From: an uncultured Elusimicrobia bacterium
Lineage (GTDB): Bacteria > Elusimicrobiota > Elusimicrobia > 2-01-FULL-59-12
Direction: 5' to 3'
Length of the DNA stretch: 64,000 nt
Assembly: GCA_963702895.1 (NCBI GenBank)
Contig: OY969767.1
Span: 320,001-384,000 of the forward strand
The notes under the pieces were generated by a model, which was given only the letters and a program-made list of their open reading frames with translations, did no database searches and was not told the origin of the DNA. The translations under genes and the position numbers were made by a program. Each line of letters opens with the position of its first letter. Positions within the stretch are counted from its first letter, which is position 1. Below, piece after piece: positions 33,804 to 54,722 of this stretch.

Positions 33804-34229
33804 ATGAAAGAGGCAAAGAGTGAAAAAGGGGATGGGGCAGACCCGCGAGAAGAATTTGGGCACAGATGCCGGGCATTCGCCGCATTAGTTCTGCGGTATA
33901 CGAGCCGGTTCCCGAAGGACAAGAAAGGCCGCTATTTGGCGGACCAACTCCTGAGAAGCGGAACGTCGATCGGGGCAAACGTGCATGAAGCTCAAGCTGC
34001 CCAATCGCGAGCGGACTTCATTTCGAAGATGAATATTGCGCTAAAGGAAGCGCGGGAGGCAACTTACTGGCTGGAAACAATGAGAGACGCCCATTACATG
34101 CAGGAGACGGAAGCCGCCGCTCTTGGGCGGGAAGCACCACAGCTCGCCGCCATCCTGGCACAATCCATCATCACCGCAAAGGCAAACGGCCGGACAACGA
34201 CAGAGAAAATTGAAAATAGCTCAGCGTAA
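33804..34229 (+). CDS. Four-helix-bundle protein (23S rRNA IVP-like family)
   Basis: QLLRSGTSIGANVHEA..SRADFISKMNIALKEAREATYWL. Confidence 0.92.
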   Translation: MKEAKSEKGDGADPREEFGHRCRAFAALVLRYTSRFPKDKKGRYLADQLLRSGTSIGANVHEAQAAQSRADFISKMNIALKEAREATYWLETMRDAHYMQETEAAALGREAPQLAAILAQSIITAKANGRTTTEKIENSSA

Positions 34230-34390
34230 ATAGCCAAAGATCAAAAAGTCGCTATTTTCATTTTTCAATTTTCTCTTTGCTCTGCAGAACGGCCGGACAA
34301 CGCCATAGAGAATTGAAAATAGCTCAGCGTAAATAGCTAAAGATCAAAAAGTCGCTATTTTCATTTTTCAATTTTCTCTTTGCTCTGCAG
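34185..34390 (+). repeat. Two tandem 103-bp near-identical units, each an internal inverted repeat
   Basis: Units start at 34185 and 34288, with a third partial start at 34391. ATTGAAAATAGC pairs with GCTATTTTCATTTTTCAAT. Confidence 0.9.
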
Positions 34391-34427
34391 AACGGCCGGT
34401 GATCCCTTAAGGGAACCACCGGCCGTT
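34391..34427 (-). terminator. Stem-loop downstream of the tRNA-fMet 3' remnant
   Basis: AACGGCCGGTG-ATCCCTTAAGGGAAC-CACCGGCCGTT. Confidence 0.6.
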
Positions 34428-34430
34428 CTG

Positions 34431-34594
34431 TTGCGGGGGTAGGATTTGAGCCTATCCCTCGCCGCCTTATTTGCTTTAGGGGAATGCGGCTTGGGACCTG
34501 GGCGCTCACGATCTCGCACCCGTGCCTGGGCTCAGCTCGGATTCCCAAAGCCCCACTGGGGCTTTGACCCTCGCCAGGCACCCTTCGGGTTATG
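34431..34594 (-). pseudogene. 3' half of tRNA-fMet interrupted by a ~125-bp insert
   Basis: 34431-34454 matches the tRNA at 23/24; CCTTCGGGTTATG resumes at 34582-34594. Confidence 0.8.
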
Positions 34595-34823
34595 CTTCTT
34601 TTCGCAACCTCTCGTATTCTTCTGGAGTGACTTCGATATCACGGAGGATGGCTCGAATGAGCCCTCGTCCCAAGTCTTCGCCGCGATGGATTGGAACCAC
34701 TGTGGCGCGGCCGTCAGAATGACGAAAGAAAGCGTGACTCCCTTTTTGACGTATTAAAGAAAAACCCAGATGCCGTAAAATCTTCGACATCTGGGCGGCT
34801 GAAACGAGTGTCAGCTTGCTCAT
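34590..34823 (-). CDS. hicA: HicA-family toxin
   Basis: LGFSLIRQKGSH..HSDGRATVVPIH..GLIRAIL. Confidence 0.92.
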   Translation of the reverse strand: MSKLTLVSAAQMSKILRHLGFSLIRQKGSHAFFRHSDGRATVVPIHRGEDLGRGLIRAILRDIEVTPEEYERLRKEA

Positions 34824-35041
34824 TACACGGCGATTTGAAGCTGATGAACACCTACAAATCGATTCTGAATCAAATTCCGCTTTTCAACGCTCAGGCAAAG
34901 TTTGATCGCTTCTTTAAGCCGCTTCTCTAATTCGGCAAGGGAACGCGCCTGGGTATGGCACCCTTTTAAGCCGGGCACGATCCCGACATAGACGCCATCT
35001 TCATCTTGTTCGATTAACACGGGGAACTGATACTTCTTCAT
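34823..35041 (-). CDS. hicB: HicB-family antitoxin (short form)
   Basis: VLIEQDEDGVY..VPGLKGCHTQA..KEAIKL. Confidence 0.9.
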   Translation of the reverse strand: MKKYQFPVLIEQDEDGVYVGIVPGLKGCHTQARSLAELEKRLKEAIKLCLSVEKRNLIQNRFVGVHQLQIAV

Positions 35042-35072
35042 AATCAAAAACCCACGACTTCGCATGGATTCA

Positions 35073-35088
35073 TGGTTGCGGGGGCACG
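35073..35088. mobile_element. att-like junction: tRNA-fMet 3' end with CCA joined to CACG
   Basis: TGGTTGCGGGGGCACG; GGTTGCGGGGGCACG recurs at 46950. Confidence 0.75.
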
Positions 35089-35321
35089 ATTAAAACATTT
35101 CAAAGGTTCCCCTGCCCCCAAATAGTGCTAAATTTGGCCGTTTCACGCAAGCAGCGCTGGCCGTTTGGCTTCGAAATACTCCGAGAATTCACATATCCGG
35201 CTAGCTATCCCTACCCCATCGCCGCCGACAAGGTCGAACCTGAGTCGCAGGCGGTGGCCCAAGAAACACTCTGTGTCCCTTGATCTGGCGGCTTCGCCGC
35301 CGAATCGCTCGCTGACCGGCT

Positions 35322-36242
35322 TTAGATCTCCCTTTTGACTTCGCGCAGTTCCTTATTGGTGTGGCGGGAGCCACCAACCAAACCTGTGATTTTCTTACTG
35401 AGGACAGCTGCAATTAAGAGCGCGAAGGCAATACTGATATCGGTAGGCCCTAGAGGCCAGTCCAGCTGGTACGATACCAGGAAGCCAACCACACCGCTGA
35501 CTCCTCCCATCAAGGCCGCCAGCAAGAAGAATGAGCCCATGTGCTTGCAAAAACGTCGGGCGGCCAAGGGCGGGATGATCAAAAAGGCGAAGGTCAGCAT
35601 GGGGCCCACGATGAGCACGCCCATCGAAATCGCAATTCCCATGACCGCATACAGAAGAATATCCCACAGAATCACCGGGCTCCCCATAACCTGCGCGGCG
35701 TCGCGATCATAGGAAACGCTGAGAAACTGACGATTAAATAGCACTAGCACCACGGTCAAAACACCGTAAGCGGCCAGAATCAAATAGAGGTCGCGGTGGC
35801 TCACCGTTACGATCTCTCCATGCAGCATGTTCAGCATTTCGATTTTGCCCGAGGCGTTCGCCGCCACGAGCAAAATAGACGCCGCAAAGGCCAGCGCATA
35901 GGCGGCTCCAATCCGGCTCTCGGAGGCCCCTTCCCTCCGACGTTCTAGCCAAGCGAGTATCAAGAGCGCCCCGAAGCCGAACAGGAAGGATCCCATAAGC
36001 GCCAGGAAACGGTCATTGGCTTCGCCGGGATGAAGAGACCAGGTCACACCCAGCCCCTGAAGGAAAAACGCGAAGGCGATGCCGGCGGCTGAAATCTGAG
36101 GCAATGCGACACCGAGCAAAGTCATCCGGCGAAGCATAAAGTAAACGCCGATGAGCGGACAGAAAATCCCGACCACGACGCTCCCCCACAGCGCGTTCTG
36201 CAGAAGAAAGCCCGGATGAAAGACGGTTATGAACGTGTTCAT
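35322..36242 (-). CDS. znuB: Zn/Mn ABC transporter permease
   Basis: Polytopic membrane protein; IGVYFMLRR, SYDRDAA and LDWPLGP motifs. Confidence 0.85.
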   Translation of the reverse strand: MNTFITVFHPGFLLQNALWGSVVVGIFCPLIGVYFMLRRMTLLGVALPQISAAGIAFAFFLQGLGVTWSLHPGEANDRFLALMGSFLFGFGALLILAWLERRREGASESRIGAAYALAFAASILLVAANASGKIEMLNMLHGEIVTVSHRDLYLILAAYGVLTVVLVLFNRQFLSVSYDRDAAQVMGSPVILWDILLYAVMGIAISMGVLIVGPMLTFAFLIIPPLAARRFCKHMGSFFLLAALMGGVSGVVGFLVSYQLDWPLGPTDISIAFALLIAAVLSKKITGLVGGSRHTNKELREVKREI

Positions 36243-36976
36243 ACGCCCGCCTCAAGAAGTTCCACGATGCGGTCCGGCGACAACATTTCCACCGCTGGTC
36301 CGCAGAGGATGCCCCCATTGTTGACCACGATGACCCGCTCCACGCGGTTGCGGAGCGATTGCATGTGATGGGAGACCATCAATATGGCCATTTGGGACTG
36401 CTTATGAAGTTGTTTCAGGAGTGCAAGAATGCTTTCCTCCGCCACCGGATCGATCCCTGCCGTCGGTTCGTCCAGGACGAGCAGGCGCGGGTTTACCGCC
36501 AGCGCCCGGGCAATGAGAACGCGTTGGCGCTGTCCGCCAGACAAGAGAGCAAAAGGATGGTCGCTGAACTCCGCCATGCCCACCTTCTGGAGGCAATCCC
36601 AGATCATGGATTTGCCTTCCCGGCCAGGCAACCGGTACCACGGGAGCGGTCCTGCCACTCCCATGCGCACGACATCCCAGGCCGTCAGCGGATAGATCGG
36701 ATCAAGGGTCTCTCTCTGCGGGACATACCCGATCCGCCCAAGGAGTTCCGGAGAGCGAGTCACTTCTCCTATATGCGGGGGAAGGAGACCTAGTAATCCT
36801 TTAAAAAGAGTGCTCTTCCCGGCCCCGTTAGGGCCAATGAGCCCGATAAACTCTCCGCGTCGCACACAAAGCGAGACGTCTCTAATGACAGGACGTTCGT
36901 TGTAACCGAAGGCCGCCTGTTTGATATCGATCAGAATGTTTTCTTCCATCTTTTCCTCCTTGCCCGCGCTATTCAT
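36239..36976 (-). CDS. znuC: Zn/Mn ABC transporter ATPase
   Basis: GPNGAGKST, IGYVPQR, LSGGQRQR and LDEPTAGID motifs. Confidence 0.88.
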   Translation of the reverse strand: MNSAGKEEKMEENILIDIKQAAFGYNERPVIRDVSLCVRRGEFIGLIGPNGAGKSTLFKGLLGLLPPHIGEVTRSPELLGRIGYVPQRETLDPIYPLTAWDVVRMGVAGPLPWYRLPGREGKSMIWDCLQKVGMAEFSDHPFALLSGGQRQRVLIARALAVNPRLLVLDEPTAGIDPVAEESILALLKQLHKQSQMAILMVSHHMQSLRNRVERVIVVNNGGILCGPAVEMLSPDRIVELLEAGV

Positions 36977-37718
36977 GGGCTAAAAGCAAAAACATCGTCC
37001 CAATCCCGAGAATCATGGCCAGGAGCTGCCCCAACGATTTCAAAGGTGCGCATTCTTTTTGAAGCTCCGGCGTCAGATTGGAACCGGCGATATAGATGAA
37101 GGATCCAGCCGTCACGCCCAGAGCAGCCCACGGGAAGTCAAAGGAGCTGGGCCGGAAGCTGAAGGGCAGGAACACGCCTAAAAGACAGGTACAGGCGGAT
37201 AGAAAATTGAAGAACAAAGCCCGTGTCCGACTATACCCCGCATCCACCAGAACGCCGAAATCCCCAATTTCGTGAGGAAGCTCGTGAAGGGCTACGGCGA
37301 TCGTAGTGGCCATGCCCACGTCAAGGCTGACCATATAGCTCGCCCCGATCATGATTCCGTCCACCAAATTGTGCAGGCCGTCTGAGACCATAATAATGCG
37401 CCCCACGGGCTTGATCCCGCCGTGCGGGTGAATGCCATGTTCGTGCTTCCACCGAAGAAACTTCTCAAACACGAAAGAAGTCAGAATACCGGATAACACC
37501 CAAAGAGACCCCTGCAAACGCCGCTCCGGGAACTTGAAGACGTCGGGCAAAAGGTGCAATGCCGCATCGCCAAACATCGCGCCCGTAGCCAAGCTCACGA
37601 GCAGATACGTGATCGACCGAAGCCGCTCCTCCCGCAATGGCAGCAGGAACAACCCGGCGAAAGACAGCAGGCTGACACAAAAGGCGCTAAGAAGCGCCTG
37701 GGGCATGAGTTCAGGCAT
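36969..37718 (-). CDS. ZIP family metal transporter
   Basis: DGLHNLVDG and HELPHEIGDF motifs; HEHGIHPH loop. Confidence 0.92.
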   Translation of the reverse strand: MPELMPQALLSAFCVSLLSFAGLFLLPLREERLRSITYLLVSLATGAMFGDAALHLLPDVFKFPERRLQGSLWVLSGILTSFVFEKFLRWKHEHGIHPHGGIKPVGRIIMVSDGLHNLVDGIMIGASYMVSLDVGMATTIAVALHELPHEIGDFGVLVDAGYSRTRALFFNFLSACTCLLGVFLPFSFRPSSFDFPWAALGVTAGSFIYIAGSNLTPELQKECAPLKSLGQLLAMILGIGTMFLLLAHE

Positions 37719-37745
37719 TGAGAACCACCCTAAGCGAAAATATAG

Positions 37746-37785
37746 CTGGCGGGGGGGTGAAAAAGGGGGCCCACCCCCCCGCCAG
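37746..37785. terminator. Intra-operon GC stem-loop after the binding-protein gene
   Basis: CTGGCGGGGGGGTG..CACCCCCCCGCCAG. Confidence 0.6.
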
Positions 37786-37795
37786 TAAGAACCGT

Positions 37796-38698
37796 TTACT
37801 TCAAGGCATCAACGACCGAACGAATGTTGTGCTCCACGAAGCCGAAGTAGGTATGAGAGTCCGAGAATGCGCCGCCCATCGTGGCGATCGGAGCGATCCG
37901 GGCTCCGGTCTGCTGGGCCAGCCAGCGGGCCGTCTGGTCCGGAAACTGAATCTCGCGAATGAGCAGCGGAACCTTTTGTTGTTTCATCTTGATCGCCAGT
38001 TCTTCCAGATGCGTCGGGGTGGGAGGGATCCCGGGTTTTAATTCGACCATGCCCACGAGTTGAAGACCCAGGAAGTCTCCGAAATACGTCATGTCCTTGT
38101 GATGGGAAACCGCCTTGACCCCTTTGGCCGGAGCGGCCATGGCCTGCCATTCAGTCAGTTTCGTTTCCCATTCCTTCTTGAAGACCTCCCGGTTCTTCTC
38201 GTAGGTCTCCTGATGGGCGGGGTCGATCCGAATGAGTCCCTTGGTAATGTTGTCCGCCATGAGACCCCCATAGCGCGGGTCCATGTTGTAGTGCGGGTTT
38301 CCCAACGGATGCAATTCCCCCTGTGCGCGGGAGAAGTTCGTCGGTGCTTCCAGCCGGTTGACGCCGTCGCTGCAGTCGATGTATCCCTCGCGGTCACGCA
38401 GGATCTTCGGGTTTTGCGCGACGTCCGAAAGCGCCGGCAAGAAGGTATGTTCGAGTTCCAGCCCCACCAGGACCACCGCGTCGGCCTGGTTCAGTTTGGG
38501 AAGAAAACTCGGACGCTGAGGGATGTTGTGGATGTCTTCCGTCCCTTTCGCGAGGCTCTCCACTTGAACCAGGTTGCCGCCGATGCGGCGCGTGATATCC
38601 GCCAGCTCCGGGGTGGTCGTGACGATTCGCAACGCGGCGAGCGCCGGGGAAGTCCCCACGCTGATCGCCGCCAACAGTGCCATGATGAAGCGTTTCAT
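37796..38698 (-). CDS. znuA: Metal ABC substrate-binding protein (ZnuA/cluster A-I)
   Basis: Signal peptide; DIHNI, GELHPLGNPHY and ELKPGIPPTPTHL motifs. Confidence 0.87.
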   Translation of the reverse strand: MKRFIMALLAAISVGTSPALAALRIVTTTPELADITRRIGGNLVQVESLAKGTEDIHNIPQRPSFLPKLNQADAVVLVGLELEHTFLPALSDVAQNPKILRDREGYIDCSDGVNRLEAPTNFSRAQGELHPLGNPHYNMDPRYGGLMADNITKGLIRIDPAHQETYEKNREVFKKEWETKLTEWQAMAAPAKGVKAVSHHKDMTYFGDFLGLQLVGMVELKPGIPPTPTHLEELAIKMKQQKVPLLIREIQFPDQTARWLAQQTGARIAPIATMGGAFSDSHTYFGFVEHNIRSVVDALK

Positions 38699-38730
38699 AA
38701 AAATCTCCTTTTTATCGAATAGAGGTTTCA

Positions 38731-39936
38731 TTACCGGTCCTTGAACAAGTGAACGTGCGTGCCGATGGTCCCAAACCACTGCAGAAACACCTGGTGGTCG
38801 ACCGGACTGCCGTCGTTCACCTTGGCCTGGGAATACTGCAGCCGGATGCGCTGGAATTCCGAGGGAGTGAAGTTGATCATCGCCCCGTAGGTTTTCTTGT
38901 TTACGGTCCGCTGCTTCAGGTTCTCAGGATCCTCCGCGTAGTCGAAGAACCCACCCCCGTTCCAACGGCGCGCGAAGTGGTAGTCCACGTAGGAATACCC
39001 GCCCAGCGTGTAGTAGCGATTGAAAGCGTCGGCATCACCGACCCCGTCGCCATCGGTATCCATGGCCAATTCGTCACGCCGGCGTTCGTCGTTCCGGAAG
39101 AATTCGGTCCCCCAGAGCAGTTTCCGGAAGGCATTTTCCTTCAGCGGCTCGTAACGGAACGTGATGTCGACCCCCGTGAGATGGCGTTGGGTGTTCATGT
39201 CGTCCACCCGGACACCGTCGATGTAGTTCTGCTTCGGCGTAAACGCGTCGCTGACACCCAAGTCGACGCCGAAGTCATCCCCGAGCGGCGCGTAGGAGAA
39301 GAGTCTTCCCAGGTAAGTCATGGCGTCCCAGGAGCGGCCTTCCGTATGGCCCGTCCCATCGGTTTCTTCCAGGCGATTATTCTCCGCGCCCATCTTGTTG
39401 TAGGCCCCCAGGGTTCCTTGAAGGAAGAATGGGGTTTTAAACAAATGGATCATCTCCACACCTTCTGCTCGGGATTCACCGCCGACGTACGCATCGATGG
39501 CCGTGGGCGAGTTCACAAAAGGCAGTTCGTGCGGATGCCAGTGCGCGAAACGACCGAAGTTGGCGAAGAACCGCCCGCCCCTCGCCGTGAGGTTGTATGG
39601 CAGAGACGTGGTGATGAAGGCCGCTTCTTCCACTTCGACCCCGTCCGGAGTTCCGTTCAGGACCGCGTAGAGGTTGGCGAAGGGATCTACGGCGGCCATC
39701 AGGTTTAGCTCCGCCGAACGGAAGTCGAAGTTCCCGTTGTTGTTCCGTGTCTGCGAGGCTACCGCGTCCAGCACCAAGCCCATCGCCGGATTGAAGACGT
39801 TGGGGTTGTATCCCGGTTTTGAGGTTGACATCGGACTCGTTTGAGTGACCTGAAGGATCGAACTTTGTGCGTAGGCGGCTACAGCCGTCGCACAAGCAAT
39901 AAACGTAAGCATCAAACTGCGTTTTAGAAAATGCAT
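38731..39936 (-). CDS. Outer-membrane beta-barrel of the zinc-uptake-associated type
   Basis: Signal peptide; FNPAMG, EVEEA, HWHPHELPF and PSEFQRIRLQY..GTHVH motifs. Confidence 0.78.
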   Translation of the reverse strand: MHFLKRSLMLTFIACATAVAAYAQSSILQVTQTSPMSTSKPGYNPNVFNPAMGLVLDAVASQTRNNNGNFDFRSAELNLMAAVDPFANLYAVLNGTPDGVEVEEAAFITTSLPYNLTARGGRFFANFGRFAHWHPHELPFVNSPTAIDAYVGGESRAEGVEMIHLFKTPFFLQGTLGAYNKMGAENNRLEETDGTGHTEGRSWDAMTYLGRLFSYAPLGDDFGVDLGVSDAFTPKQNYIDGVRVDDMNTQRHLTGVDITFRYEPLKENAFRKLLWGTEFFRNDERRRDELAMDTDGDGVGDADAFNRYYTLGGYSYVDYHFARRWNGGGFFDYAEDPENLKQRTVNKKTYGAMINFTPSEFQRIRLQYSQAKVNDGSPVDHQVFLQWFGTIGTHVHLFKDR

Positions 39937-40031
39937 ATAAGCCCTCCTGTATTAGTAAGAAAAAGCTGCTCTTTAGGTATCTTGAACCATCGGAACCCGA
40001 TGGTTTTCCTGAAATGGCTATAGTCGATGAT

Positions 40032-40301
40032 TTAGAGGGCGGGGGGAGAGAGACCGTGAGAAACGAAAACGAATTGGAGGTAAGGATGCGCAACCGCATC
40101 GGATTGGACCGATGATACAGCGACTCCCGGCGAGAGCTGCTGCGCTGGATCCGTCAATAGTGGCGTCTGATGCGCGATTTTGCAGATGGCGCAGTTCGTT
40201 TCCTGCTTGACAGTTTTGTGGCTGTGGTATGTTTCCAGGGTAGAAAGCCCCAGGAAAGCCGCCAATGTCAACAACGAAACGAACCGTACGAATCTTTTCA
40301 T
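40032..40301 (-). CDS. DUF2946-like putative metal-sensing leader protein
   Basis: N-terminal hydrophobic segment, HSH, CAIC and C-terminal GLSPP; first gene of the Zn operon. Confidence 0.65.
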   Translation of the reverse strand: MKRFVRFVSLLTLAAFLGLSTLETYHSHKTVKQETNCAICKIAHQTPLLTDPAQQLSPGVAVSSVQSDAVAHPYLQFVFVSHGLSPPAL

Positions 40302-40340
40302 TAAGACATGATCTTAATTGTCCGAGACCTCAAAAGTCAA
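40300..40340 (-). promoter_or_regulatory. sigma70-like promoter with overlapping inverted repeat (candidate Fur/Zur-family operator)
   Basis: TTGACT-N18-TAAGAT, 9 nt before ATG; ATTAAGA-N5-TCTTAAT at 40300-40318. Confidence 0.55.
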
Positions 40341-40445
40341 CCGGCCGTCTGAAATCTGGAATCCTGCGGGATCCCTATCACGCGAGCGATCCATATCCCA
40401 TCGCCGCGGACAAGATCGATACGAAACACAGTTGGCGGTGCCCGG

Positions 40446-41270
40446 CTAGCGTCCAGACGCGCTAGGCACGGGGTGTTGGTGGCCACCAGAGTGCGAATGA
40501 GGATGCAGGTGCGTCGCCTGCCCGTGAGCGTGACGGTGCTCATGGATGAGATTGACATCCAAAAGCAGCCGCGTATCTTTCAAGACCTGCTGCGCGGGCC
40601 CGGCGCGGACCAACCGGTGATCCTCCGCCAGCACGGCCGTCTGGCAATCCAACTCTTCGACCAACGCCAGGTCATGCGTCGCCAGAACGAGGGTTTTGCC
40701 CGCCGCATGCAGCTTTTCGAGGATTTCCACGACAAAGCACTGGCTGCGGGGGTCAAGGCCGTTCATCGGCTCATCCAGCAGCAGAATCTCGGGGTTCATT
40801 GTGAGCACGGAGCCTAAGGCCACCCGTTTCTTTTCGCCTCCGGAAAGAAGATAAGGCGGCCGATCGGCGAGCCGGTCGATCTCAAGGAGCGCGAGGGTCT
40901 CCTTGACGCGCTGTCTGGCCTCGTCTTCCGTCAAACCCAGCTGGCGGGGTCCAAAAAGGAGTTCTTCGGAAACCGACGGGCAGAAGAGCTGTACATCCGC
41001 ATCCTGGAAGACATAGCCGACTCGGGACCGGAAATTGGCCGCGAAAGTGGGATCCGTCAAGGATCGAGACGTCACCTCCCGACCTCGAAATTTAAGTTCG
41101 CCCTGACTCGGGAAGCGTAAACCGTCCATCAACTGAAGCAGCGTCGATTTGCCGCTCCCGTTAGCTCCAATAACAGCCCACTTCTCTTTCTCGCCGATAT
41201 CGAGGCTTACGCCGGCCAGCGCGACAGCCCCTCCAGGGTATGCATAGGTGAGATCTTTGACTGAAAGCAT
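40446..41270 (-). CDS. cbiO: Ni/Co ECF transporter ATPase with His-rich tail
   Basis: GANGSGKST, VFQDADVQLF, LSGGEKKRVA; tail HEHRHAH..HLHPHSH. Confidence 0.88.
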   Translation of the reverse strand: MLSVKDLTYAYPGGAVALAGVSLDIGEKEKWAVIGANGSGKSTLLQLMDGLRFPSQGELKFRGREVTSRSLTDPTFAANFRSRVGYVFQDADVQLFCPSVSEELLFGPRQLGLTEDEARQRVKETLALLEIDRLADRPPYLLSGGEKKRVALGSVLTMNPEILLLDEPMNGLDPRSQCFVVEILEKLHAAGKTLVLATHDLALVEELDCQTAVLAEDHRLVRAGPAQQVLKDTRLLLDVNLIHEHRHAHGQATHLHPHSHSGGHQHPVPSASGR

Positions 41271-41275
41271 GGCGC

Positions 41276-42052
41276 TCACCGATCGGCTCCGCCAGCCGGC
41301 AGATCGACCCCGCGGCTGCGCATCGCCGCGGCGACGTCCTCGCAACGCTTGCGTGTCATTCCCCAAATCTGAGCCAGCCTCTCGGCTTCCCAGCGCCAGA
41401 CCTCTCGAGTCTCCGATCGTCGGAGCTGGCGACTTTTTCGGGCCAGATGCATGTCTTGTACGGTCCGCGCCAGAATAAAGAGATACTGCCGCGCCAGAGC
41501 CAGGATCCATACTAAGGTGCGCGGGACGCCCAGAACCTGGAATCCGCGGAGCAACTTCGGGGACGGGGTGGTCCAAAGGATCAGAAAGGTCAGCGTTAAG
41601 GAGTTAAACGTCCTAGCGAACAGCATCCCGATGCCCGACCACGCCTGAACGAAGGTTGCCCCCTCAGGTCGCACCACTAGAGAAGGTAGTGGAACGAGAA
41701 AACCGAAGATGAATGAAATCGCCAATACACGCGGATAGAAGGCCGACAGCCGTACCCGCGACGCAACCGCCAGGAACAAAAGCATGGCCGCTATTCCCGC
41801 GTGCACTTTTCCCGAGCTAACAACACTTACGATTACCAAGGCGGCGATCCAGGCGGCCACCTTGAAGGCCGGCGGCACGCGCTGGAGGACGCCCCGGAGC
41901 TCGGCCGTATCCCACTGGACGTAGGAGTCGTAGATCACCCGGGCCATACGGTCAATTCCCTTGTCGAGCACGCCGGAGAGGTCTCCCGCGCTTGGGTGAA
42001 TCACGAGCGTCGGTGGCGGGTCCAATAGATAGGGCGGAAAAAATTCATTCAT
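41276..42052 (-). CDS. cbiQ: Ni/Co ECF transmembrane T component
   Basis: ARKSR and AMRSRG motifs; polytopic membrane protein. Confidence 0.85.
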   Translation of the reverse strand: MNEFFPPYLLDPPPTLVIHPSAGDLSGVLDKGIDRMARVIYDSYVQWDTAELRGVLQRVPPAFKVAAWIAALVIVSVVSSGKVHAGIAAMLLFLAVASRVRLSAFYPRVLAISFIFGFLVPLPSLVVRPEGATFVQAWSGIGMLFARTFNSLTLTFLILWTTPSPKLLRGFQVLGVPRTLVWILALARQYLFILARTVQDMHLARKSRQLRRSETREVWRWEAERLAQIWGMTRKRCEDVAAAMRSRGVDLPAGGADR

Positions 42053-42056
42053 TGGC

Positions 42057-43037
42057 TTAGAAATAGAACGATAGCGTCGTCACGAGGCGGAATTTTTCCA
42101 GCCCTTCGGCGCCTTGCTGTTCATCCTTTTCATTCAGGTTTTTCCATGCTGGGACTTTACAGAGAACTCCCAGGTTGGCGTTCCAGAGTTTCGGGAAGGA
42201 GAACCGAAGCCCTGGAGAAGCATAGAGGATGGTTCCGCCCGTCGCGCTGAGTCCCTCGCCCGATTCCTGGTCGCGAGCAAGCTGCAGGAGATTCAGCTCA
42301 ATGACACCGTCTAGTTTTGACAGGAACGCATTCGGATTCCCATAGAGCTCATCGACCCCCGCCAGGCTGAATCGGTATTCGTTCCCGAATTTGAAGTCGT
42401 CTCTCTCTGTGAAAACATCGTAGGAGGTATCGGCGACGAGCGTAAAAGACCCGAAAAGGTGCCGGGCGGCAGAGGCCCCCATGGAATAGGATGGGCTTCC
42501 GAATCCCGGCTGCATTCCTGGATCAACGGAGTCCCCTAAAACCACATCATCCTTTCCGGTCGGGGCCGTCACTCCCCCGTAAAATGACAGATAGGATTTA
42601 TCGGATCCTTCGAGAGTAACGGCGGTTTCACTCTGTTTGTTCAAGTGAAAACCTTCACCCTTGCCGTGATTGAGCCCCAGCGTAAACAGGAACCGCACGT
42701 CGCCGATACCGCTCGCCGACCCCAGGGAATCCTGCCGCTTGGTGTTGTAAGGCAGAAAGACGGAGGTCGTCAGCCAGGGCGTCGCGCCGTAGGAAAGACC
42801 CGCGTTATAAAACGAGAACGAACTTTTGTTTTCCGGTTCGGCAAAAGCGTATTTTCTCCAAGCCACCTGCTCACTTCGCATGGAGACCACGAATCCTCCC
42901 TGGGGCAGTGTCAGAGGAGAATTGGTATCGATGGGGCTGCCGGGGCCAAAGGCCAGACTGACACCGCCATGGTGGGCCATGGCTGGGGCCGTGATCAGGC
43001 CAACAACAAGAAAAGACCAAACTGACTTGAAACGCAT
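42057..43037 (-). CDS. Outer-membrane transporter-like beta-barrel
   Basis: Signal peptide ending AMA-HHGG; SGIGD, APTG and QPGFGS motifs; terminal F. Confidence 0.75.
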   Translation of the reverse strand: MRFKSVWSFLVVGLITAPAMAHHGGVSLAFGPGSPIDTNSPLTLPQGGFVVSMRSEQVAWRKYAFAEPENKSSFSFYNAGLSYGATPWLTTSVFLPYNTKRQDSLGSASGIGDVRFLFTLGLNHGKGEGFHLNKQSETAVTLEGSDKSYLSFYGGVTAPTGKDDVVLGDSVDPGMQPGFGSPSYSMGASAARHLFGSFTLVADTSYDVFTERDDFKFGNEYRFSLAGVDELYGNPNAFLSKLDGVIELNLLQLARDQESGEGLSATGGTILYASPGLRFSFPKLWNANLGVLCKVPAWKNLNEKDEQQGAEGLEKFRLVTTLSFYF

Positions 43038-43071
43038 GGGGAAGACCTCCAATATTTTTTGGGATATGAAA

Positions 43072-43530
43072 TCAGCTTGTCGGCGATGCTTTTCGCCTGC
43101 TCGCTGCCAGGCTTACCAAACCGAAGAGTCCGAATATCAGGCTTATCCCGGTGATGAGCTTCGTGTGCCTGGCGAGAAGCGGCTTTCGAAACGATGCCAG
43201 GTCCAGGGCTTGGTCAACCTTCACATCAACGGTGACGCCATGGTATCCGTGCATTGATTCGCCTAGAATCTTGATCTTCCAATCGCCCGCCCGATCCGGG
43301 AGAAAGGACACCACGCCGTTTTTGTCCGTGCGGCCTGTGGCAAAAGGGAGCGCGTCTCCAGGCCCGAAAATCTCGTAGCCGGCATAACTGGCCGGATCGG
43401 TTTCCGAATAGAAGACCTTTGCAGAGATCCCCTTAGGCATGACGTCATAATTGACGCTGTGCGCCTGTGCCGAAGGGATGGACCATAGGGCCATCAGCCC
43501 AAAGAAGGGATAGACAACGAGTCGTTTCAT
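43072..43530 (-). CDS. NikL-like accessory nickel transport protein
   Basis: AQA-H signal cleavage site, GRTDKNGVVSF, GYHG and a C-terminal TM. Confidence 0.7.
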   Translation of the reverse strand: MKRLVVYPFFGLMALWSIPSAQAHSVNYDVMPKGISAKVFYSETDPASYAGYEIFGPGDALPFATGRTDKNGVVSFLPDRAGDWKIKILGESMHGYHGVTVDVKVDQALDLASFRKPLLARHTKLITGISLIFGLFGLVSLAASRRKASPTS

Positions 43531-44882
43531 GGTTTCACCTCAAAAGCGAGCGTGGTCGTGATGCTCGTCCAATCTGCGTCGGGATCGTTGGCGCGCGGCG
43601 ACTTCTGCGTCACGGTCACGACCTGATGACCGCCAATCACCGGCACGCGAATCACGCCATCCGAATCCGTTTTTCCTGCCTGTTCATGTCCGGTCGACTC
43701 GACATCGACCCCTGAGAGCGGTTGCCCCTCATGGAGGACTTTCACGGGCAGGGTTTGGCCCGGTTTCATAGCCAGAGGATTCTCAAGAGGAATGAGGTCC
43801 AGAACGATGCCCGGGATGGGCTTCATGGCCCCCGGCCCCCAGCCAAACAGTGCTTTGGAGATATTCCATGAGCGAAGGGCTTCTACGACGCGACTCGCTT
43901 TCCGTTTCGGGAGTTCTTTCCATCCATAGATGGTCTTGGACCAATACTTGTTGTCGATTTCTACGACCAAAAGCGCCGCAGGCGACGTGGCGCTGAAAGA
44001 GACGCCCTTGGCTTTTTTCATCATGCGAACATCCACAGGTCTCCCTTCGAGGTCAAACCCCCGCGCTTGTGTGACATTGGCAGGGTCGTAGGCAGAACGG
44101 CTTGACCCGTGGCCGAACACCAGCGTATAGGTCCCGGCTCCAGGTTCGATCCAGAATTCATGCGCTTTCAGGGGAGATGCGGCTAGAAGGAAGGCCCCCA
44201 GCAGGAAAGCAAGCGACCTTGACTCCACCGGAGGAATACGACGTTTGATCGCCTGAAAAGAGAGGCCCGTCATCGCGGCTTCTAGAATCCCCACGACGCT
44301 CAGGTGAGTCACCATCATCGTCGGGATGACGATCTTCAGCGAATACGGAAAATATCCAGGATGAAGTCTTGGCTGAATGCCGAGCTCGAACGCCGTCAAG
44401 AGCGCGGAGAGATTGATGGATAGGTACGCGGCGAGGGCGGCCAAAACCGCTTCCGCTCGTCGATGGTCTTTCATCGGGAGCTTTTTGGCGATGGCCTGAA
44501 GCACCCGGAACGTCGCCGCAGCGCAGAGCGAGCCGACTAAGGCCATGTTAAAACAGTTCGCCGCCAGCACGGTAACGCCCCCGTCGCCAAAGAGAAGAGC
44601 CTGAATCGCAAGGGCGACGGAAACCGCGATCACGGCCGCCCAAGGGCCAAGCAAAATCGCGACAAGCGCCGCTCCCTGTAAATGAGTGGTCGTTCCTCCG
44701 GGCACGGGAATAGCAAACGTCATCGCAAGGAGACAGAAGACGGAGGCCATCGCCAAATGGGGGATCCGGTCAGATGGAAGCTGGGCTCCCACTTTTTTCG
44801 AGGCATAGCCCCAGACAGGAACCATCACGGCCCAGAAACTTCCGTAGGTGGCTGGTCCCAGATAGCCGTCAGGAATGTGCAT
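43527..44882 (-). CDS. cbiM: NikM/CbiM S component fused to a DUF4198 (NikK-like) domain
   Basis: MHIPDGYL N-terminus and QALLFGDGG; later LKA-HEFWIEP, YWSKT and GKTDSDG in the same frame. Confidence 0.85.
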   Translation of the reverse strand: MHIPDGYLGPATYGSFWAVMVPVWGYASKKVGAQLPSDRIPHLAMASVFCLLAMTFAIPVPGGTTTHLQGAALVAILLGPWAAVIAVSVALAIQALLFGDGGVTVLAANCFNMALVGSLCAAATFRVLQAIAKKLPMKDHRRAEAVLAALAAYLSINLSALLTAFELGIQPRLHPGYFPYSLKIVIPTMMVTHLSVVGILEAAMTGLSFQAIKRRIPPVESRSLAFLLGAFLLAASPLKAHEFWIEPGAGTYTLVFGHGSSRSAYDPANVTQARGFDLEGRPVDVRMMKKAKGVSFSATSPAALLVVEIDNKYWSKTIYGWKELPKRKASRVVEALRSWNISKALFGWGPGAMKPIPGIVLDLIPLENPLAMKPGQTLPVKVLHEGQPLSGVDVESTGHEQAGKTDSDGVIRVPVIGGHQVVTVTQKSPRANDPDADWTSITTTLAFEVKP

Positions 44883-45306
44883 GCGGAGTACTCTTTGTTT
44901 CCGCTCCACCTGCGGCTGATAGCGTGGCGAACTGGACACCCTTTTCCTTCTTCATCCGATCAGCAAGTTCCTTGAGGCGTCGCGCTTCTCCCCGCGCCAC
45001 GATGACCTCCAGACATTGGTCGTGTTTGAGGTGAATATGTTGTGCGCAAAGCACCGTTGCAGGGTGGTCGTGTTGGATGTGAAGCAACTTATTGACAAGT
45101 CCACGCTGATGGTGGTCGTAGGAGATCGTGATGACACCCACCACCTCTTTGGAAGAGCTTTCCCAATCGGAGCGCACAAACTCTGCTCGCATCAGGTCGC
45201 GCAGGGCCTCCGAGCGGTTGGTGTAGCGGCCCTTGTGGATATGGGCGTCGAAACGCCGCAAGATATCCTCATCGATGGCCACTCCGAAACGAATCAGCTT
45301 TGCCAT
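44869..45306 (-). CDS. nikR: Nickel-responsive regulator
   Basis: IRFGVAI, NRSEALRDL, YDHH and HIHLKHDQCLEV motifs. Confidence 0.95.
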   Translation of the reverse strand: MAKLIRFGVAIDEDILRRFDAHIHKGRYTNRSEALRDLMRAEFVRSDWESSSKEVVGVITISYDHHQRGLVNKLLHIQHDHPATVLCAQHIHLKHDQCLEVIVARGEARRLKELADRMKKEKGVQFATLSAAGGAETKSTPHAHS

Positions 45307-45309
45307 TTG

Positions 45310-45336
45310 GTGGCACGTTTATAACATTTGTAACAC
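45310..45336. promoter_or_regulatory. Candidate NikR operator overlapping the nikR promoter
   Basis: Imperfect inverted repeat GTGGCAC-N13-GTAACAC just upstream of the start; TTGACC..TATAAA on the minus strand. Confidence 0.6.
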
Positions 45337-45433
45337 GTCTAGGTCAAAAAAAGCCGTCAGGACGCAGGCCCCCGACCACCCGGCCGCCCTGCGAGGATAA
45401 TTTCTCGAGGCGGCCGGGAACGAGCGTGCGGGT

Positions 45434-46432
45434 CTACAGTTGGAAGCGGTACGCAACGCTGCTCAACAGGTTGTAATCCGAGGTGAGCTGGATTTCATTA
45501 ACGCGCTGATGAATTGGGATTTGGGCCACTGTTGACCATTCCCAGGCATCTGTCAAGCGGAACTGCACGCCGGGCGAGTAGTACAGATATTCTCCGCCGG
45601 TCTTCTCCACTTCTTCGCTGGTTTGGCCTTTATCATCCTTTTCCTTCACGACCAGATTGAACTGGCTCATGATACCCAGCCATTTCACGATGGGATATGT
45701 TGTCCCCAGGTTTACTGTCATGACATTCCCGAGCTTGTAGTCCTCATGCCCTTTTCCGTTGATCTTGTAATTGGCGCTCAAGAATAGCGGCATGGCGGTG
45801 TACTGGCCGCCGATCGTCGGAACGCTAAAGTGCTGCAGCGATGCCCCGCCGACGATGAAGTCATAAGATGCCGATCCGGGTGTGATCCCGGGTTCCGCCT
45901 CATCCCCATCACTGTTCGTGATATGCGATTTCCCGGTTGGAAATTCCATTCCGACGATGCCGGATAAGGTGGGACGGCTGGTCTCAGCTGGTTTAAAGAA
46001 GGCATACCGCGCCTGCGCCGACAAGTCCCCGATGTCCGTGAAATCCCACCCTTCCGGGATGATCTCCGCGCCACCGTGGTGATTGTGAATATGACGATGG
46101 CTTCGGGAGATGAGCGGCAAGGCAAGATCCAAGCTCAGGCGATCCGTAACGCCATATGTTCCAAGGAAGCGATGGATTCGATTTACAGTCCTCTGCTCGT
46201 CATGATGCCCGCTGATCTCGCCGACGTAGGCCTTATTTGTGCCGATGCGCGGCTGATCCTGGTCGATGTATTCGAACTCGTACCCCAACCGGACGAGACC
46301 CTTTTCTGAAACAAATGAACTGCGGGTGTCCAAGGGACATGTGGCGGACCCGCAACTCGCCCAACCTTGTGAAATGCACGTCAATAACGTCACAGCGCAA
46401 GCCATTAGCCCGCGCTTTATAGCGCTAGTCAT
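45434..46432 (-). CDS. Outer-membrane transporter-like beta-barrel with Cys/His motifs
   Basis: Signal peptide; SCGSATCP, GHHDE, HRHIHNHH, IGD and FPTG motifs. Confidence 0.75.
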   Translation of the reverse strand: MTSAIKRGLMACAVTLLTCISQGWASCGSATCPLDTRSSFVSEKGLVRLGYEFEYIDQDQPRIGTNKAYVGEISGHHDEQRTVNRIHRFLGTYGVTDRLSLDLALPLISRSHRHIHNHHGGAEIIPEGWDFTDIGDLSAQARYAFFKPAETSRPTLSGIVGMEFPTGKSHITNSDGDEAEPGITPGSASYDFIVGGASLQHFSVPTIGGQYTAMPLFLSANYKINGKGHEDYKLGNVMTVNLGTTYPIVKWLGIMSQFNLVVKEKDDKGQTSEEVEKTGGEYLYYSPGVQFRLTDAWEWSTVAQIPIHQRVNEIQLTSDYNLLSSVAYRFQL

Positions 46433-46490
46433 AAATCCTCCTATGCAAAACGAAATGAATATCCGAATGCCTACGACAAACAGCAGTGGT

Positions 46491-46877
46491 TTAGCAGGAG
46501 GTTTCAGGCGGCGGGATGAAAATATCAGGGATGAACGACAAATAGAAAGTGGGCGCCCAAGCAACAGAGGGACGGGTCATTTCTCCGTACACGACGAAGA
46601 CGGATGCGGGGATCATTTCGCGGCGTTCGGGTGGAACGGTCATATCATCTCCGCCGCCACACGATTTGATAGATGCTTGATCAGGCGCGGTTGGCTTCTT
46701 GGCTTTCTTAGGGAAGCAACAACAATGGCTCATGCATTTTTTCTTGCTCGAACAGGCGCACTGGTGGCTGCCACAAGGAAAGTTCGGATCCGGTCCTGCA
46801 AAGGCAGAAGCGTAAACATCCAACGGCATAAGACATAGAACGAGCACAACCGATAAAAGAAGACGACATTTCGGCAT
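46491..46877 (-). CDS. Cys-rich exported small protein with C-terminal PPP (putative leader)
   Basis: Signal segment; CGSHQCAC..CMSHCCC; ends IFIPPPETSC. Confidence 0.65.
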   Translation of the reverse strand: MPKCRLLLSVVLVLCLMPLDVYASAFAGPDPNFPCGSHQCACSSKKKCMSHCCCFPKKAKKPTAPDQASIKSCGGGDDMTVPPERREMIPASVFVVYGEMTRPSVAWAPTFYLSFIPDIFIPPPETSC

Positions 46878-46904
46878 CTTTGTTTGAGCCAATTCTACAT
46901 CGAC

Positions 46905-46949
46905 AAAAAGAATCGCCGGCCGATCCTCTTCAGGATCTGCCGGCGATTC
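46905..46949 (-). terminator. Intrinsic terminator following the displaced tRNA 3' end
   Basis: Minus strand reads GAATCGCCGGCAGATCCTGAAGAGGATCGGCCGGCGATTC-TTTTT. Confidence 0.8.
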
Positions 46950-47077
46950 GGTTGCGGGGGCACGTTTCCAACGCTAGGGAGCATACAACAGGCCCACCAT
47001 AGCCCCTGGCTACGCATTCGACCTTACGTCCTCAAAGCCCCTTACAAACACTACGCTGCCACGGGAGGCCATCACTT

Positions 47078-47404
47078 ATGAAGTCTGATGCTGAAGCTAT
47101 CGCTTTACTGGGGGGTAAGGGGGCAGAAGGGGGCAATTCACACCCCAAAGGGCCTCTCCGCTGTACTCACCGCTGGGCATTAGTAAGCCGATCAGCGATA
47201 CGGGAGAAGGCTGAAACCCTGGGGACTCTCCTGATCCAGGTGTGCCGCTGGTGCGGGACATTTCGGGCGAGCACGTTCTGGCCGCAGGTCAGCGGGAGGG
47301 GCCGGATCGAGGTGAACTATCGGGTGCGCTACCTCAAGGCCGAGGAGGGGCTTCGCAAGGTGTCGTTTAACCCTACAGAAGAGCTGCAGGAAGAGGAGGA
47401 CTGA
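47078..47404 (+). CDS. Hypothetical protein (CxH..CxxC)
   Basis: GGAGG SD; CTH and CRWC motifs. Confidence 0.6.
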   Translation: MKSDAEAIALLGGKGAEGGNSHPKGPLRCTHRWALVSRSAIREKAETLGTLLIQVCRWCGTFRASTFWPQVSGRGRIEVNYRVRYLKAEEGLRKVSFNPTEELQEEED

Positions 47405-47406
47405 CT

Positions 47407-47652
47407 ATGCCGTTTACCTATTGGCGAAAGCTGAAGAAGTGGAAGAGTAAGGCCGGTGAGATCCGAGGTTACTATGAAGAAACAGGGGAGCGCTATAAAT
47501 TCGCTTTCTACCCAGCTGACGGAGGGCCTAAGCAGATCAAGATCGTAAAATGCGACGAGGAGGGCCGCTTTGAAGTCCCGAGCCTGAACCAGTTTATGAG
47601 TATCCGAATGGGAAGGCCGCAAGTCGATCGAGGAGAAGATCTAAGTAATTGA
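47407..47652 (+). CDS. Hypothetical protein
   Basis: GGAGGA SD; tight spacing to the previous ORF. Confidence 0.6.
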   Translation: MPFTYWRKLKKWKSKAGEIRGYYEETGERYKFAFYPADGGPKQIKIVKCDEEGRFEVPSLNQFMSIRMGRPQVDRGEDLSN

Positions 47653-47668
47653 TCCCACCTGACAGAAG

Positions 47669-48127
47669 TTGTCTAATTTGTGCGTGCTCAAAGCACTCCT
47701 GATCTATCTGTTCCCTATCGCTCTCCTGACAAGCTGCACTTATCACCGGCCAGCGCTAATTGCTCAGGCAAACATTGGCCCGAAGGAAATTGCAGTTGGT
47801 GTGACTAAAGGAGAGTCCAGCGCTTTCTATGTGCTGTTCTTCGGGCCTTTTGGCGATAATTCTCTAGCTGCTGCTGTAGAGGACGCTAAAGCTAAAGCAA
47901 ATGCGGATACGCTATTGAATGTCTTTGTCGACAGACAGACTTTCTTTATCCCTTTGATCTACACACGAGTAACGACTGTGATATACGGTACTCTGGTGAG
48001 CTACAACCCTCCGTTAACCAAACAAGACAGCTTAAGAAGTGAACAGGCTCCATTCAACGCAAACAAAAGTCTAGAGAAAACAATACCCCCGAGAGGATCC
48101 TCAGCGCCAGCCGATCAAGCCTTGTAG
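47669..48127 (+). CDS. Putative lipoprotein (Bor/TRL-like)
   Basis: Lipobox LLTSC; FGPFGDNSLAAAV..NVFVD. Confidence 0.65.
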   Translation: MSNLCVLKALLIYLFPIALLTSCTYHRPALIAQANIGPKEIAVGVTKGESSAFYVLFFGPFGDNSLAAAVEDAKAKANADTLLNVFVDRQTFFIPLIYTRVTTVIYGTLVSYNPPLTKQDSLRSEQAPFNANKSLEKTIPPRGSSAPADQAL

Positions 48128-48265
48128 TGCAATAGAGAGTGTCGAAATAATTACCCAAATTCACTATAGAGCTTTGACGGTCTATCCTGCCTGAAATACC
48201 GCATTTAACACGACCTACCGATAACGAATTGCGCTTTTTGGGTCGTTAAATACGAATTTAATTAC

Positions 48266-48889
48266 CTAAGCGAACTGGTACGCGAGTGCCGCTTCCTTCT
48301 TGCGCTCGGCGGTAGCCCTGACGTAAGGCAATAGGCTTTGAAGGCTGGAATGACCCGAGAGGCTCATAAGTGTAGATGGATCACGCCCAGGGGCACGGAA
48401 CGTCAAATACGTCGCACGGAAGCTATGCGGGGTGATCCGCTTGGTAATACCCGCCTGGCGTGAGAACCTCTCGACAAGACAACTGATAGCCTTGGGTGTT
48501 ATGCGCCGCTTCGCATAGGGGCCATGCTTGCCCAGGGTTAGAAACAGCGGAGCGTCCTGAGAGGGCTTGCCCTCGCCATGCTCGAGCTGTAGATACCGAG
48601 AGATCCCACGATAGACACTATCGGCAACAGGGATCTTGAGCCAGTACGGTCGCTTGGTGCGCTTCTTCAAGCCCTGATAGCTGAGGTATTTCTGCCCCTC
48701 GTCTACCAAATGCCCGACATTGAGCCTGACCAGCTCACCCTGTCTCATAGGCGTGTTAGCCAAGACCAGGAGCACGGCATAGTCTCTTGCGCCCTCTTTG
48801 GTGCGCCGGTCTGGTAGCGATAACATTCGGGAAAGCTCTTCTTCAGTAAGAACGTCTGACTGTCCTGCGGGTCTTCCTCTCATATTCAT
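48266..48889 (-). CDS. Short tyrosine recombinase (catalytic domain only)
   Basis: RDYAVL..MRQGEL, K, TPHSFR and GHSS..Y catalytic residues. Confidence 0.88.
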   Translation of the reverse strand: MNMRGRPAGQSDVLTEEELSRMLSLPDRRTKEGARDYAVLLVLANTPMRQGELVRLNVGHLVDEGQKYLSYQGLKKRTKRPYWLKIPVADSVYRGISRYLQLEHGEGKPSQDAPLFLTLGKHGPYAKRRITPKAISCLVERFSRQAGITKRITPHSFRATYLTFRAPGRDPSTLMSLSGHSSLQSLLPYVRATAERKKEAALAYQFA

Positions 48890-48921
48890 TCTCCATATCC
48901 ATTATGCGCTCTACTACAGTA

Positions 48922-48953
48922 TCCACTAGTAGTCAGTATACTCTACTAGTGGA
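48922..48953. promoter_or_regulatory. Perfect 11-bp inverted repeat in the divergent promoter region
   Basis: TCCACTAGTAG-N10-CTACTAGTGGA. Confidence 0.7.
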
Positions 48954-48984
48954 CACGAGTCAATTATTCACGTATCATTAACGT

Positions 48985-49173
48985 ATGAAGAAAAAGAAGA
49001 CTCCCGAAGGCAAAGGCTACAAGTTTTATGAGGAAGCGGGTCTGCAGCAGTTGTCTATCCATATTCCCTCTGCTGCGCACAAGAGGCTTAAGGGTCTGGC
49101 CGAACGGCGCGGGGTGTCCCTGCAGCTGCTGGCGCGTACATTACTTATGGAGGGCGCAAAGGTCAAATCTTAA
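48985..49173 (+). CDS. Ribbon-helix-helix DNA-binding protein
   Basis: QLSIHIP..HKRLKGLAERRGVSLQLLARTLL. Confidence 0.75.
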   Translation: MKKKKTPEGKGYKFYEEAGLQQLSIHIPSAAHKRLKGLAERRGVSLQLLARTLLMEGAKVKS

Positions 49174-49193
49174 TATGGAAAGGATCATAAACT

Positions 49194-49508
49194 ATGTCTG
49201 ACTCAAAGGTACATCTTTACCATACGTATTATGACTTGTGTAGTGACCATATCGCGAACGCGCTTAGAAAAGAAGGTATTGAATATGAAGTGCAATCGTA
49301 CTGGTGGATACGCGGAGTGAGAACAAATTATGACATCTATGTATCCCCTGGGGATCTTACTAGAGCACAGGATGTAGTAAGTCGCGAACAGTCTAGACTG
49401 CACGCGCTTGGATCAACAGCTTTAAATAGGCGAAATATCAGAATGGTCCTTTTGTTCACCGCAGTCTTCGCCTTAATCTTTCTTTTGAGCTACTTAACAG
49501 ATAGATAG
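49194..49508 (+). CDS. Small membrane protein (DUF2007-like)
   Basis: ALRKEGIEY..IYVSPGDLTRAQ; C-terminal TM. Confidence 0.6.
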   Translation: MSDSKVHLYHTYYDLCSDHIANALRKEGIEYEVQSYWWIRGVRTNYDIYVSPGDLTRAQDVVSREQSRLHALGSTALNRRNIRMVLLFTAVFALIFLLSYLTDR

Positions 49509-49662
49509 TAGAGAATGAGTCCTGGGAGGGACGGCGGGGCCAGAGTAAAAAGCCAGTCGTCAGATCGTCTTCGTTATCAGTAAAGATAGCTCGTCTTCCA
49601 GAACTTTTTCTTTTTTGGCGAGCTTAAGGCAGTACCAGCGAGCGGAACAGAACGGAGCGAAT

Positions 49663-50421: not shown

Positions 50422-50537
50422 CCGTTCCCACAACCCCATAAGAACCTAAAGCTTCTTTTTTCTCCGTCGAGCAAAGATCCCTAGAGATCTTTCGCGGAAG
50501 TCCGAGGAACCATAATTACCCCGTAAAGGAGCTAATT

Positions 50538-50831: not shown

Positions 50832-50910
50832 CTGCCTCCAAGAATTTCCCATACAAACAAAAACCCCGCACGAATTATCGTTCGTACGGGGGAGTGAAAG
50901 GAACTACACC

Positions 50911-52769: not shown

Positions 52770-52781
52770 CACGTATGACAC
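52656..52781. repeat. Iteron-like GTGTCA/TGACAC cluster (candidate origin)
   Basis: GTGTCA at 52656, 52665, 52673 and 52731; TGACAC at 52700, 52712, 52767 and 52776. Confidence 0.7.

Positions 52782-52975: not shown

Positions 52976-54722
<1,747 letters not shown>

Follow-up and report, generated by a model that had tools for sequence, protein, structure and literature searches.

Orphan serine-recombinase tails at stacked tRNA-fMet junctions beside zinc and nickel uptake operons of an uncultured Elusimicrobia bacterium

How do two metal-uptake operons come to lie downstream of a tRNA gene, framed by short pieces that look like the ends of lost integrases? We address this question in the genome of an uncultured Elusimicrobia bacterium (a single contig of 2.72 Mb, G000:C1), of which we analysed a stretch of 64,000 nucleotides (contig OY969767.1, positions 320001-384000), hereafter called the window. 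G-numbers denote the genomes compared (G000 being this one), L-numbers individual loci and C-numbers contigs. A sequence-only reading of the same DNA had noted a junction at 35073, an open frame from 35077 to a stop at 35281-35283 and a diverged copy of its peptide at 40361-40420, all of which are correctly placed, and had proposed that each metal-uptake block arrived on a related split-integrase element. The explanation that we favour, with moderate confidence, is a series of large serine recombinase (LSR) insertions at a tRNA-fMet gene, in which the block or blocks marked by one type of integrase tail (A) are older and an element with another type of tail (B) is the latest arrival. The features on which this explanation rests are the following:

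54648-54723, minus strand: tRNA-Met(CAT), CCA not encoded in the gene
46952-54657, no strand: resident integrative element, corresponding to a 7,697-bp circle
52976-54667, plus strand: LSR of the resident element, 563 amino acids as integrated (Pfam Resolvase, Recombinase and Zn_ribbon_recom)
46952-46960, no strand: core of junction J3, predicted cognate attR of the resident element
46953-47081, plus strand: LSR tail of type B, 42 codons, motif LK.PY.HY
35048-35084, minus strand: junction J2, a weak hairpin, CCA and the 9-nt core; predicted attR-type junction of a type-A LSR element
35077-35283, plus strand: orphan C-terminal LSR tail of type A, 68 codons, motif RWP.G..ILR..YP
40361-40420, plus strand: coreless type-A tail remnant, the last third of the tail with one codon deleted

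We take the tRNA to be of the initiator type, given its C1:A72 pair and three G-C pairs in the anticodon stem. An Rfam scan of 28000-60000 returned this tRNA, one sub-threshold match and nothing else. The core TTGCGGGGG is present at 34431 (J1), 35076 (J2) and 46952 (J3). As a bare 9-mer it occurs 31 times in the genome and is thus not significant alone; extended by CACG to a 13-mer, it occurs twice on both strands of the 2.72 Mb, at 35076 and 46952, with about 0.2 occurrences expected from base composition. From 35073, J2 reads TGG, the core (35076-35084) and CACG.

The resident LSR is an intact single open reading frame (ORF) with the Resolvase, Recombinase and zinc-ribbon/coiled-coil domains that define large serine recombinases, and its C-terminus CGGRI is encoded within the antisense strand of the tRNA. 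As expected of a split integrase, the ORF crosses the att core and its relatives keep a longer conserved C terminus: 48 of 59 homologs carry a tail B of about 39 residues, while three stop just past the core, one has tail A and seven show no such motif. Against a tail-B profile, the frame at J3 scores 21.5 bits versus 1.5 bits for the frame at J2, and joining tail B by excision would give an LSR of 600 amino acids in total. The resident P arm and the J3 arm match at 12 of 28 symmetric positions, centred in a G run, compared to 8 of 28 for J2 at that centre, a small gap that stands without comparison to a null. Because tail B is typical of the resident clade, J3 encodes tail B and the resident arm pairs best with the J3 arm, we predict that J3 is the cognate attR and that the intact element spans 46952-54657. 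The idea that the tail at 35077 belongs to the resident integrase is hence superseded, as the resident clade uses tail B, found at 46953. The two tails do not align as one family (hhalign probability 5%). Besides its LSR, the resident element carries small ORFs, a TRL-like lipoprotein, a 207-amino-acid tyrosine recombinase (48266-48889) and a 554-amino-acid ORF without family match.

In the model of a natural homolog, a disordered linker is followed by tail B, which forms a confident strand (predicted local distance difference test 78-87). Solved LSRs match the model of a homolog, the TP901-1 catalytic domain with Z 12.9 and a root-mean-square deviation of 2.4 over 109 residues, but their alignment reaches no further than about residue 535 of a homolog of 594 amino acids. 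These results suggest that the short LSR form retains the canonical fold and that the tail is an add-on, which might, by analogy with the integrase of phage Mx8, tune LSR activity or direction. The linker codons likely have a second role as terminator of the tRNA, as the following structure lies directly past the tRNA 3' end:

54603-54647, minus strand: hairpin with U-rich tail, antisense in the last LSR codons before the core

Such an antisense hairpin, encoded by the LSR linker codons, follows the tRNA at seven of eight loci of the clade (-27 to -33 kcal/mol). Read-through LSR forms predominate in the database and two loci, L219 and L220, have no tRNA within the DNA examined; both observations are unexplained. 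The named records among the closest integrase relatives are metagenome-assembled genomes (MAGs) of Elusimicrobiota and Acidobacteriota, and the resident LSR alone, used as query against the genome contigs, found nothing. An identity as Ccr recombinase of the staphylococcal cassette chromosome SCCmec was rejected, the best CcrA/B/C score being 74.5 bits against a cut-off of 900. Elsewhere, the IMG/VR viral contig L289 encodes a resident-clade LSR (5608-7446, 53%), followed by what by eye are terminase- and portal-like genes, and a relaxase-bearing element (L017, G006:C64:43-402) carries a 119-amino-acid LSR in which an internal deletion left the first 36 and the last 90 residues up to the core.

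But is the frame at 35077 a real integrase tail? It stays open for 68 codons from CGG, and the LSRs of G008 and G010 (616 and 606 amino acids) read through the same core into tails that are 42% and 44% identical to it. The closest tail, at L143, is 88% identical; 19 of the 23 changes fall on third codon positions (pN 0.06 versus pS 0.73, the proportions of nonsynonymous and synonymous differences). Since LSRs of relatives continue across this core into tails homologous to it, and the changes concentrate on third positions, we conclude from these comparisons that the frame is a genuine C-terminal LSR tail that evolved under protein-level selection. A tail-A profile matched 23 of the 393 genomes of the class. 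We inspected all 21 places with E values up to 1e-4 and one of ten weaker ones, which was noise. Two of the 21 are in frame with a full LSR, 12 lie behind a core without in-frame LSR, six lack a core, are degenerate or abut a contig edge, and one resembles chance. Among 30 metagenome loci with tail A, some of which duplicate the genomes, one (L166) has a full in-frame LSR, and a complete element, bounded by tail A on one side and by a G010-like LSR that ends in tRNA-fMet on the other, is present in G373. Tail peptides thus lie next to tRNA-Met att sites or serine recombinases in G008, G010, L166 and G373, which bears out the earlier identification of the window's frames as orphan integrase tails. 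Searches of the tail frames in Pfam and PHROGs and of tail A in viral contigs gave no match.

The second type-A piece, at 40361-40420, matches the J2 tail at 14 of 21 peptide positions and with 82% DNA identity over 44 nt. Its local score of 61 exceeds the best of 231 other genome blocks of the same size (51), and among all tails seen its closest is the J2 tail of its own genome. It has neither a core nor the RWP.G motif that is invariant in the family, and hence represents a leftover of the tail's last third rather than a junction. It sits between the cbiO stop (40446) and the first ATG of the Zn operon (40301). A role of the 44-nt repeat as promoter of the Zn operon was rejected: by eye, it is absent upstream of that operon in G004, G009 and G010, and promoter-like sites are no more frequent than by chance.

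On either side of the remnant lie the two operons, and the block ends at J3 in a plain non-coding terminator:

35322-40301, minus strand: Zn/Mn-type ABC uptake operon (small protein, putative outer-membrane protein, ZnuA-like, ZIP, ZnuC-like, ZnuB-like)
40446-46892, minus strand: NikR-regulated Ni/Co ECF uptake operon (small protein, putative outer-membrane protein, NikR, CbiM-DUF4198 fusion, NikL-like, MetA-pathway-like, CbiQ, CbiO)
46910-46949, minus strand: intrinsic terminator hairpin abutting J3 (-33.1 kcal/mol, U tract), without LSR coding relic

The metal specificity of the Zn operon is read from family names, all scores being below the NCBIfam equivalog cut-offs. The Zn+Ni block has no integrase of its own and is host-like in composition, while the resident element is not (tetranucleotide percentiles: Zn block 0.38, Ni block 0.03, resident element 0.99). 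The worry that the metal operons might be syntenic core genes in relatives lacking such scars holds in part: Zn-operon orthologs (60-70%) stand beside a sensor-kinase gene in G004, G009 and G010, three other genera, and the 19.5 kb examined there contain neither tRNA-Met nor core nor tail motif. This conserved slot is at another locus, however, and in G000 and G001 a distant paralog (ZnuA 34-37%) occupies it; neither operon qualifies as a core chromosomal operon at this locus. Because the paralog already fills the core slot, the window's copy of the Zn operon constitutes an additional system that was either imported or relocated. None of the regions downstream of tRNA-fMet that were examined in the family (G001, G004, G005, G007, G009) contains these orthologs. 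The Ni operon looks foreign: none of 392 other genomes of the class has a full-length match to its CbiM-DUF4198 fusion, whose best database homologs are about 50% identical, the named ones coming from Deltaproteobacteria, Syntrophaceae, Thermodesulfobacteriota, Binatia and Geobacter. The nearest relatives thus differ between the two operons, which is compatible with two arrivals. The closest match within the class, cbiM-cbiQ-cbiO of G007 (53%), adjoins tRNA-Leu(TAA), likewise an island-like position (L202, G007:C2:244300-247800). At 15514-27807 of the window, 13 kb from the Ni operon, a membrane-bound NiFe hydrogenase-like cluster includes a gene for a HycI maturation protease.

Outward of J2, a third junction bounds a small islet of 645 bp:

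34427-34454, minus strand: J1, displaced tRNA-fMet 3' end including part of the T arm, 26 of 28 nt
34388-34430, minus strand: terminator-like hairpin abutting J1 (-37.5 kcal/mol), flanks of G004 and G005 77-81% identical
34593-35041, minus strand: hicB-hicA toxin-antitoxin pair (Pfam HicB_lk_antitox, HicA_toxin), sole cargo of the islet

J1 is an attB-like scar and not an LSR attR; the hairpin abutting it is of a style common to other genera of the family. Both hicB and the first gene of the Ni block begin about 10-30 nt past terminator hairpins and are co-directional with the tRNA, and the short gaps (35041-35072 and 46877-46909) leave scant promoter space. A tandem duplication of 103 nt (34185-34390) lies behind a four-helix-bundle gene; in G007, such a gene is likewise found immediately downstream of tRNA-fMet. 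On the other side of the locus, the tRNA-fMet 5' half and its promoter are duplicated 1.5 kb upstream (56181-56254 versus 54690-54763, 74 nt with 92% identity), the two copies flanking a Sel1-repeat gene, and another, interrupted copy lies at G000:C1:161506-161703; these are possibly islands of a 5'-end type. In G001:C1, G011:C54, G025:C10 and G038:C11 (L049, L063, L064, L062), tRNA-fMet is interrupted by anticodon-loop inserts of 259-664 nt, probably introns.

Taken as far as sequence reaches, the split-gene anatomy, the two tail families, the stacking and the absence of an integrase from the block are established. As sequence and relatives show, LSR elements target the tRNA-fMet 3' end with an attP inside their integrase gene. 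Upon insertion, the integrase body stays beside the tRNA, ending in five tRNA-derived residues, and the conserved tail is stranded at the far end. In the mechanism that we propose, every new arrival displaces earlier ones outward. The order, oldest first, would be the hicBA islet (J1-J2, presumably of a T-arm type), the tail-A insertion or insertions and the intact tail-B element between J3 and the tRNA. Tail-A insertions may number one or, more likely, two, with the Zn block at J2 and the Ni block at the eroded 40361 remnant; that two arrived and the junction between them eroded is about an even call, perhaps slightly better. The type-A integrase may have been deleted in place, or the block may have arrived already without it.

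Several observations weigh against this explanation. Beyond the tail, no LSR body was detectable in 34431-46951, and no second core lies between J2 and J3. The J3 hairpin resembles the 3' hairpins of type-B LSRs no more closely than common terminators do, 65% of 343 controls reaching its score, so that loss of an integrase in place is unsupported. The proposed tandem arrivals are thus borne out as a stacked tRNA-fMet array with the metal block inside a tail-marked insertion, while the postulated loss of the integrase bodies is undemonstrable. At L143 and L165, the upstream LSR end passes the core in a frame other than the tail's; the symmetry gap between J3 and J2 is slight; the host-like composition is equally compatible with an old host rearrangement; three related genera carry the Zn operon as a normal part of their chromosome; and no relative was found with the same metal block at tRNA-fMet or with an exact empty site.

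Junctions of terminator, core and tail as well as coreless remnants were found again in G295, G005, G004, G348 and G322, and the J3 terminator resembles those of G002, G004, G005, G006 and G009. Three near-identical tandem genes downstream of the transfer-messenger RNA gene (G000:C1:2035265-2039700) each stand behind a J3-style hairpin. That the J3 and J1 hairpins are relics of type-B LSR 3' ends was rejected, neither passing the 95th control percentile, which two of 23 flanks (G002, G373) did. Could blocks running from tail to terminator then be non-autonomous cassettes that never had an integrase and were moved in trans, excised through attR x attR and inserted through attR x attB recombination, to form an integron-like array? 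Cassette ends are indeed alike over about 45-67 nt on the terminator side and 90-167 nt on the tail side around unrelated cargo (over 45 nt, the G002 end and the J3 flank share 80% identity). In G295, four such junctions at spacings of 1.8-4.8 kb and a further tail lacking a core accompany toxin-antitoxin, AbiE and ankyrin genes, and their contig has no match to PF07508 (Recombinase). However, the G295 tails are decaying (ratio of nonsynonymous to synonymous substitution rates 0.3-1.8 over six pairs, one with a stop), an identical cassette at two different places was not found, and in the cited account of phiC31 integrase the wild-type enzyme performs neither attR x attR nor attR x attB recombination, the former being achieved by hyperactive mutants only (PMC2475636). 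We therefore regard such trans-mobilisation as unlikely. It is also rather improbable, in our estimation, that the class holds an LSR-driven array of tail-bearing, terminator-ended cassettes in which a cassette that lands next to the tRNA, inward of an autonomous element, supplies the integrase of that element with its tail, and the resulting full-length hybrid enzyme, as in G008 and L166, can move cassette and cargo, here the metal-uptake operons.

The same constraint bears on present-day mobility. By its sites, attL x J3 would be the normal excision pair. Recombination of attL with J2 would be chemically canonical but non-cognate and could possibly co-excise the block with the resident element. 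By analogy with phiC31, J2 x J3, that is release of 35076-46960 alone as had been suggested, would be a non-canonical attR x attR excision, which speaks against the resident integrase mobilising it. The Zn+Ni block, host-like and without integrase and P arm, is probably now fixed; at most, it could leave in cis through resident attL x J2. A single read run (10 contigs, sparse cover, no joints) is uninformative on excision. A related proposal is that 35076-54657 came as one composite 19.6-kb circle, formed by accretion from donor attL and distal attR, and can still be mobilised in one piece. Past the core, nine of the first 12 bases are shared by the arms of J2 and J3, resident-clade LSRs are fused to tail A in G008 and L166, and cis-mobilisation of this kind was proposed by McMurdie et al. 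(PMC3146451). Yet the composition of the metal block differs sharply from that of the resident element, J2 is missing the distal CTAG, which the resident P arm and J3 have in symmetric position, and the hybrid fusions indicate insertion beside an older element rather than excision by it, so that we consider a composite arrival improbable as well.

That J2 alone is a genuine scar, while the piece at 40361 arose by duplication or capture of a fragment and ordinary host rearrangement shifted the metal operons into an old relic, is very doubtful: the remnant is coreless and nearest to its own genome's J2 tail, and the same-genus G001 has homologs of the window's ACT gene (76%) and of the Ni-block outer-membrane gene (54%) beside its core-slot Zn paralog, but G005 (remnant, cargo, terminator, core, tail, cargo, tRNA) and G295 also show a coreless remnant followed by cargo and terminator with core, the window's remnant lies exactly between two operons of different origin, and the CbiM-DUF4198 fusion stands alone in the class at full length.

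Under serial insertion, orphan tails act as clade tags, from which the integrase family of each insertion can be read long after the integrase itself is gone, even where the shared DNA amounts to a stretch of 9 bases, which is too small for island finders that rely on repeats. The locus further illustrates a route by which an uncultured anaerobe may have gained Ni uptake 13-19 kb from a group-4-type NiFe hydrogenase cluster, a link that we infer. Two tail families with natural hybrids also make a question raised by McMurdie et al. in 2011, whether the tail switches integrase activity, directly testable.

How does this locus compare to known systems? We found no literature on this LSR and tail family closer than the works cited here. 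A 2014 database paper states that serine integrases were not known to target tRNA genes (PMC4383910). As in myxophage Mx8 IntP and the integrases of Sulfolobus spindle-shaped viruses (SSV), attP lies inside the integrase gene, and a shortened Mx8 integrase is summarised as less active (PMC4701971, PMC4383910); those enzymes are tyrosine recombinases, while the LSR described here is a serine recombinase. Streptococcal integrative and conjugative elements at rumA (Ambroset et al. 2016, PMC4701971) share an att site inside a serine integrase gene and a C terminus that differs between excised and integrated form, but are conjugative with a protein-coding target, and the sections cited describe neither a tRNA target nor stacked orphan tails. 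The concept of cis-mobilisable elements and accretion, as cited in PMC3146451, likewise features an integrase-less block with att remnants beside an intact element; here, the distal site belongs to a different LSR tail family, which makes mobilisation uncertain. The nearest parallel are the Dehalococcoides ssrA islands, as described by McMurdie et al. (PMC3146451): DsiB overlaps attL at ssrA, islands stand in tandem and 15 lack an integration module, and the authors suggest that dsiB is completed in the circle or by the 3' fragment of a neighbouring island. Both systems combine an LSR of about 540-560 amino acids overlapping attL at a single-copy tDNA (a tRNA-type gene) with tandem islands, some of them integrase-less. 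The target here is tRNA-fMet and not ssrA, and families of the six-gene ssrA-island module (dsiA, parB, mom) do not appear in Pfam, NCBIfam and PHROGs searches of the element ORFs, several of which match nothing. The layout of the locus is that of the Dehalococcoides ssrA islands, and what it adds are tail families as scar tags: two conserved, unrelated families that tie each scar to an integrase clade.

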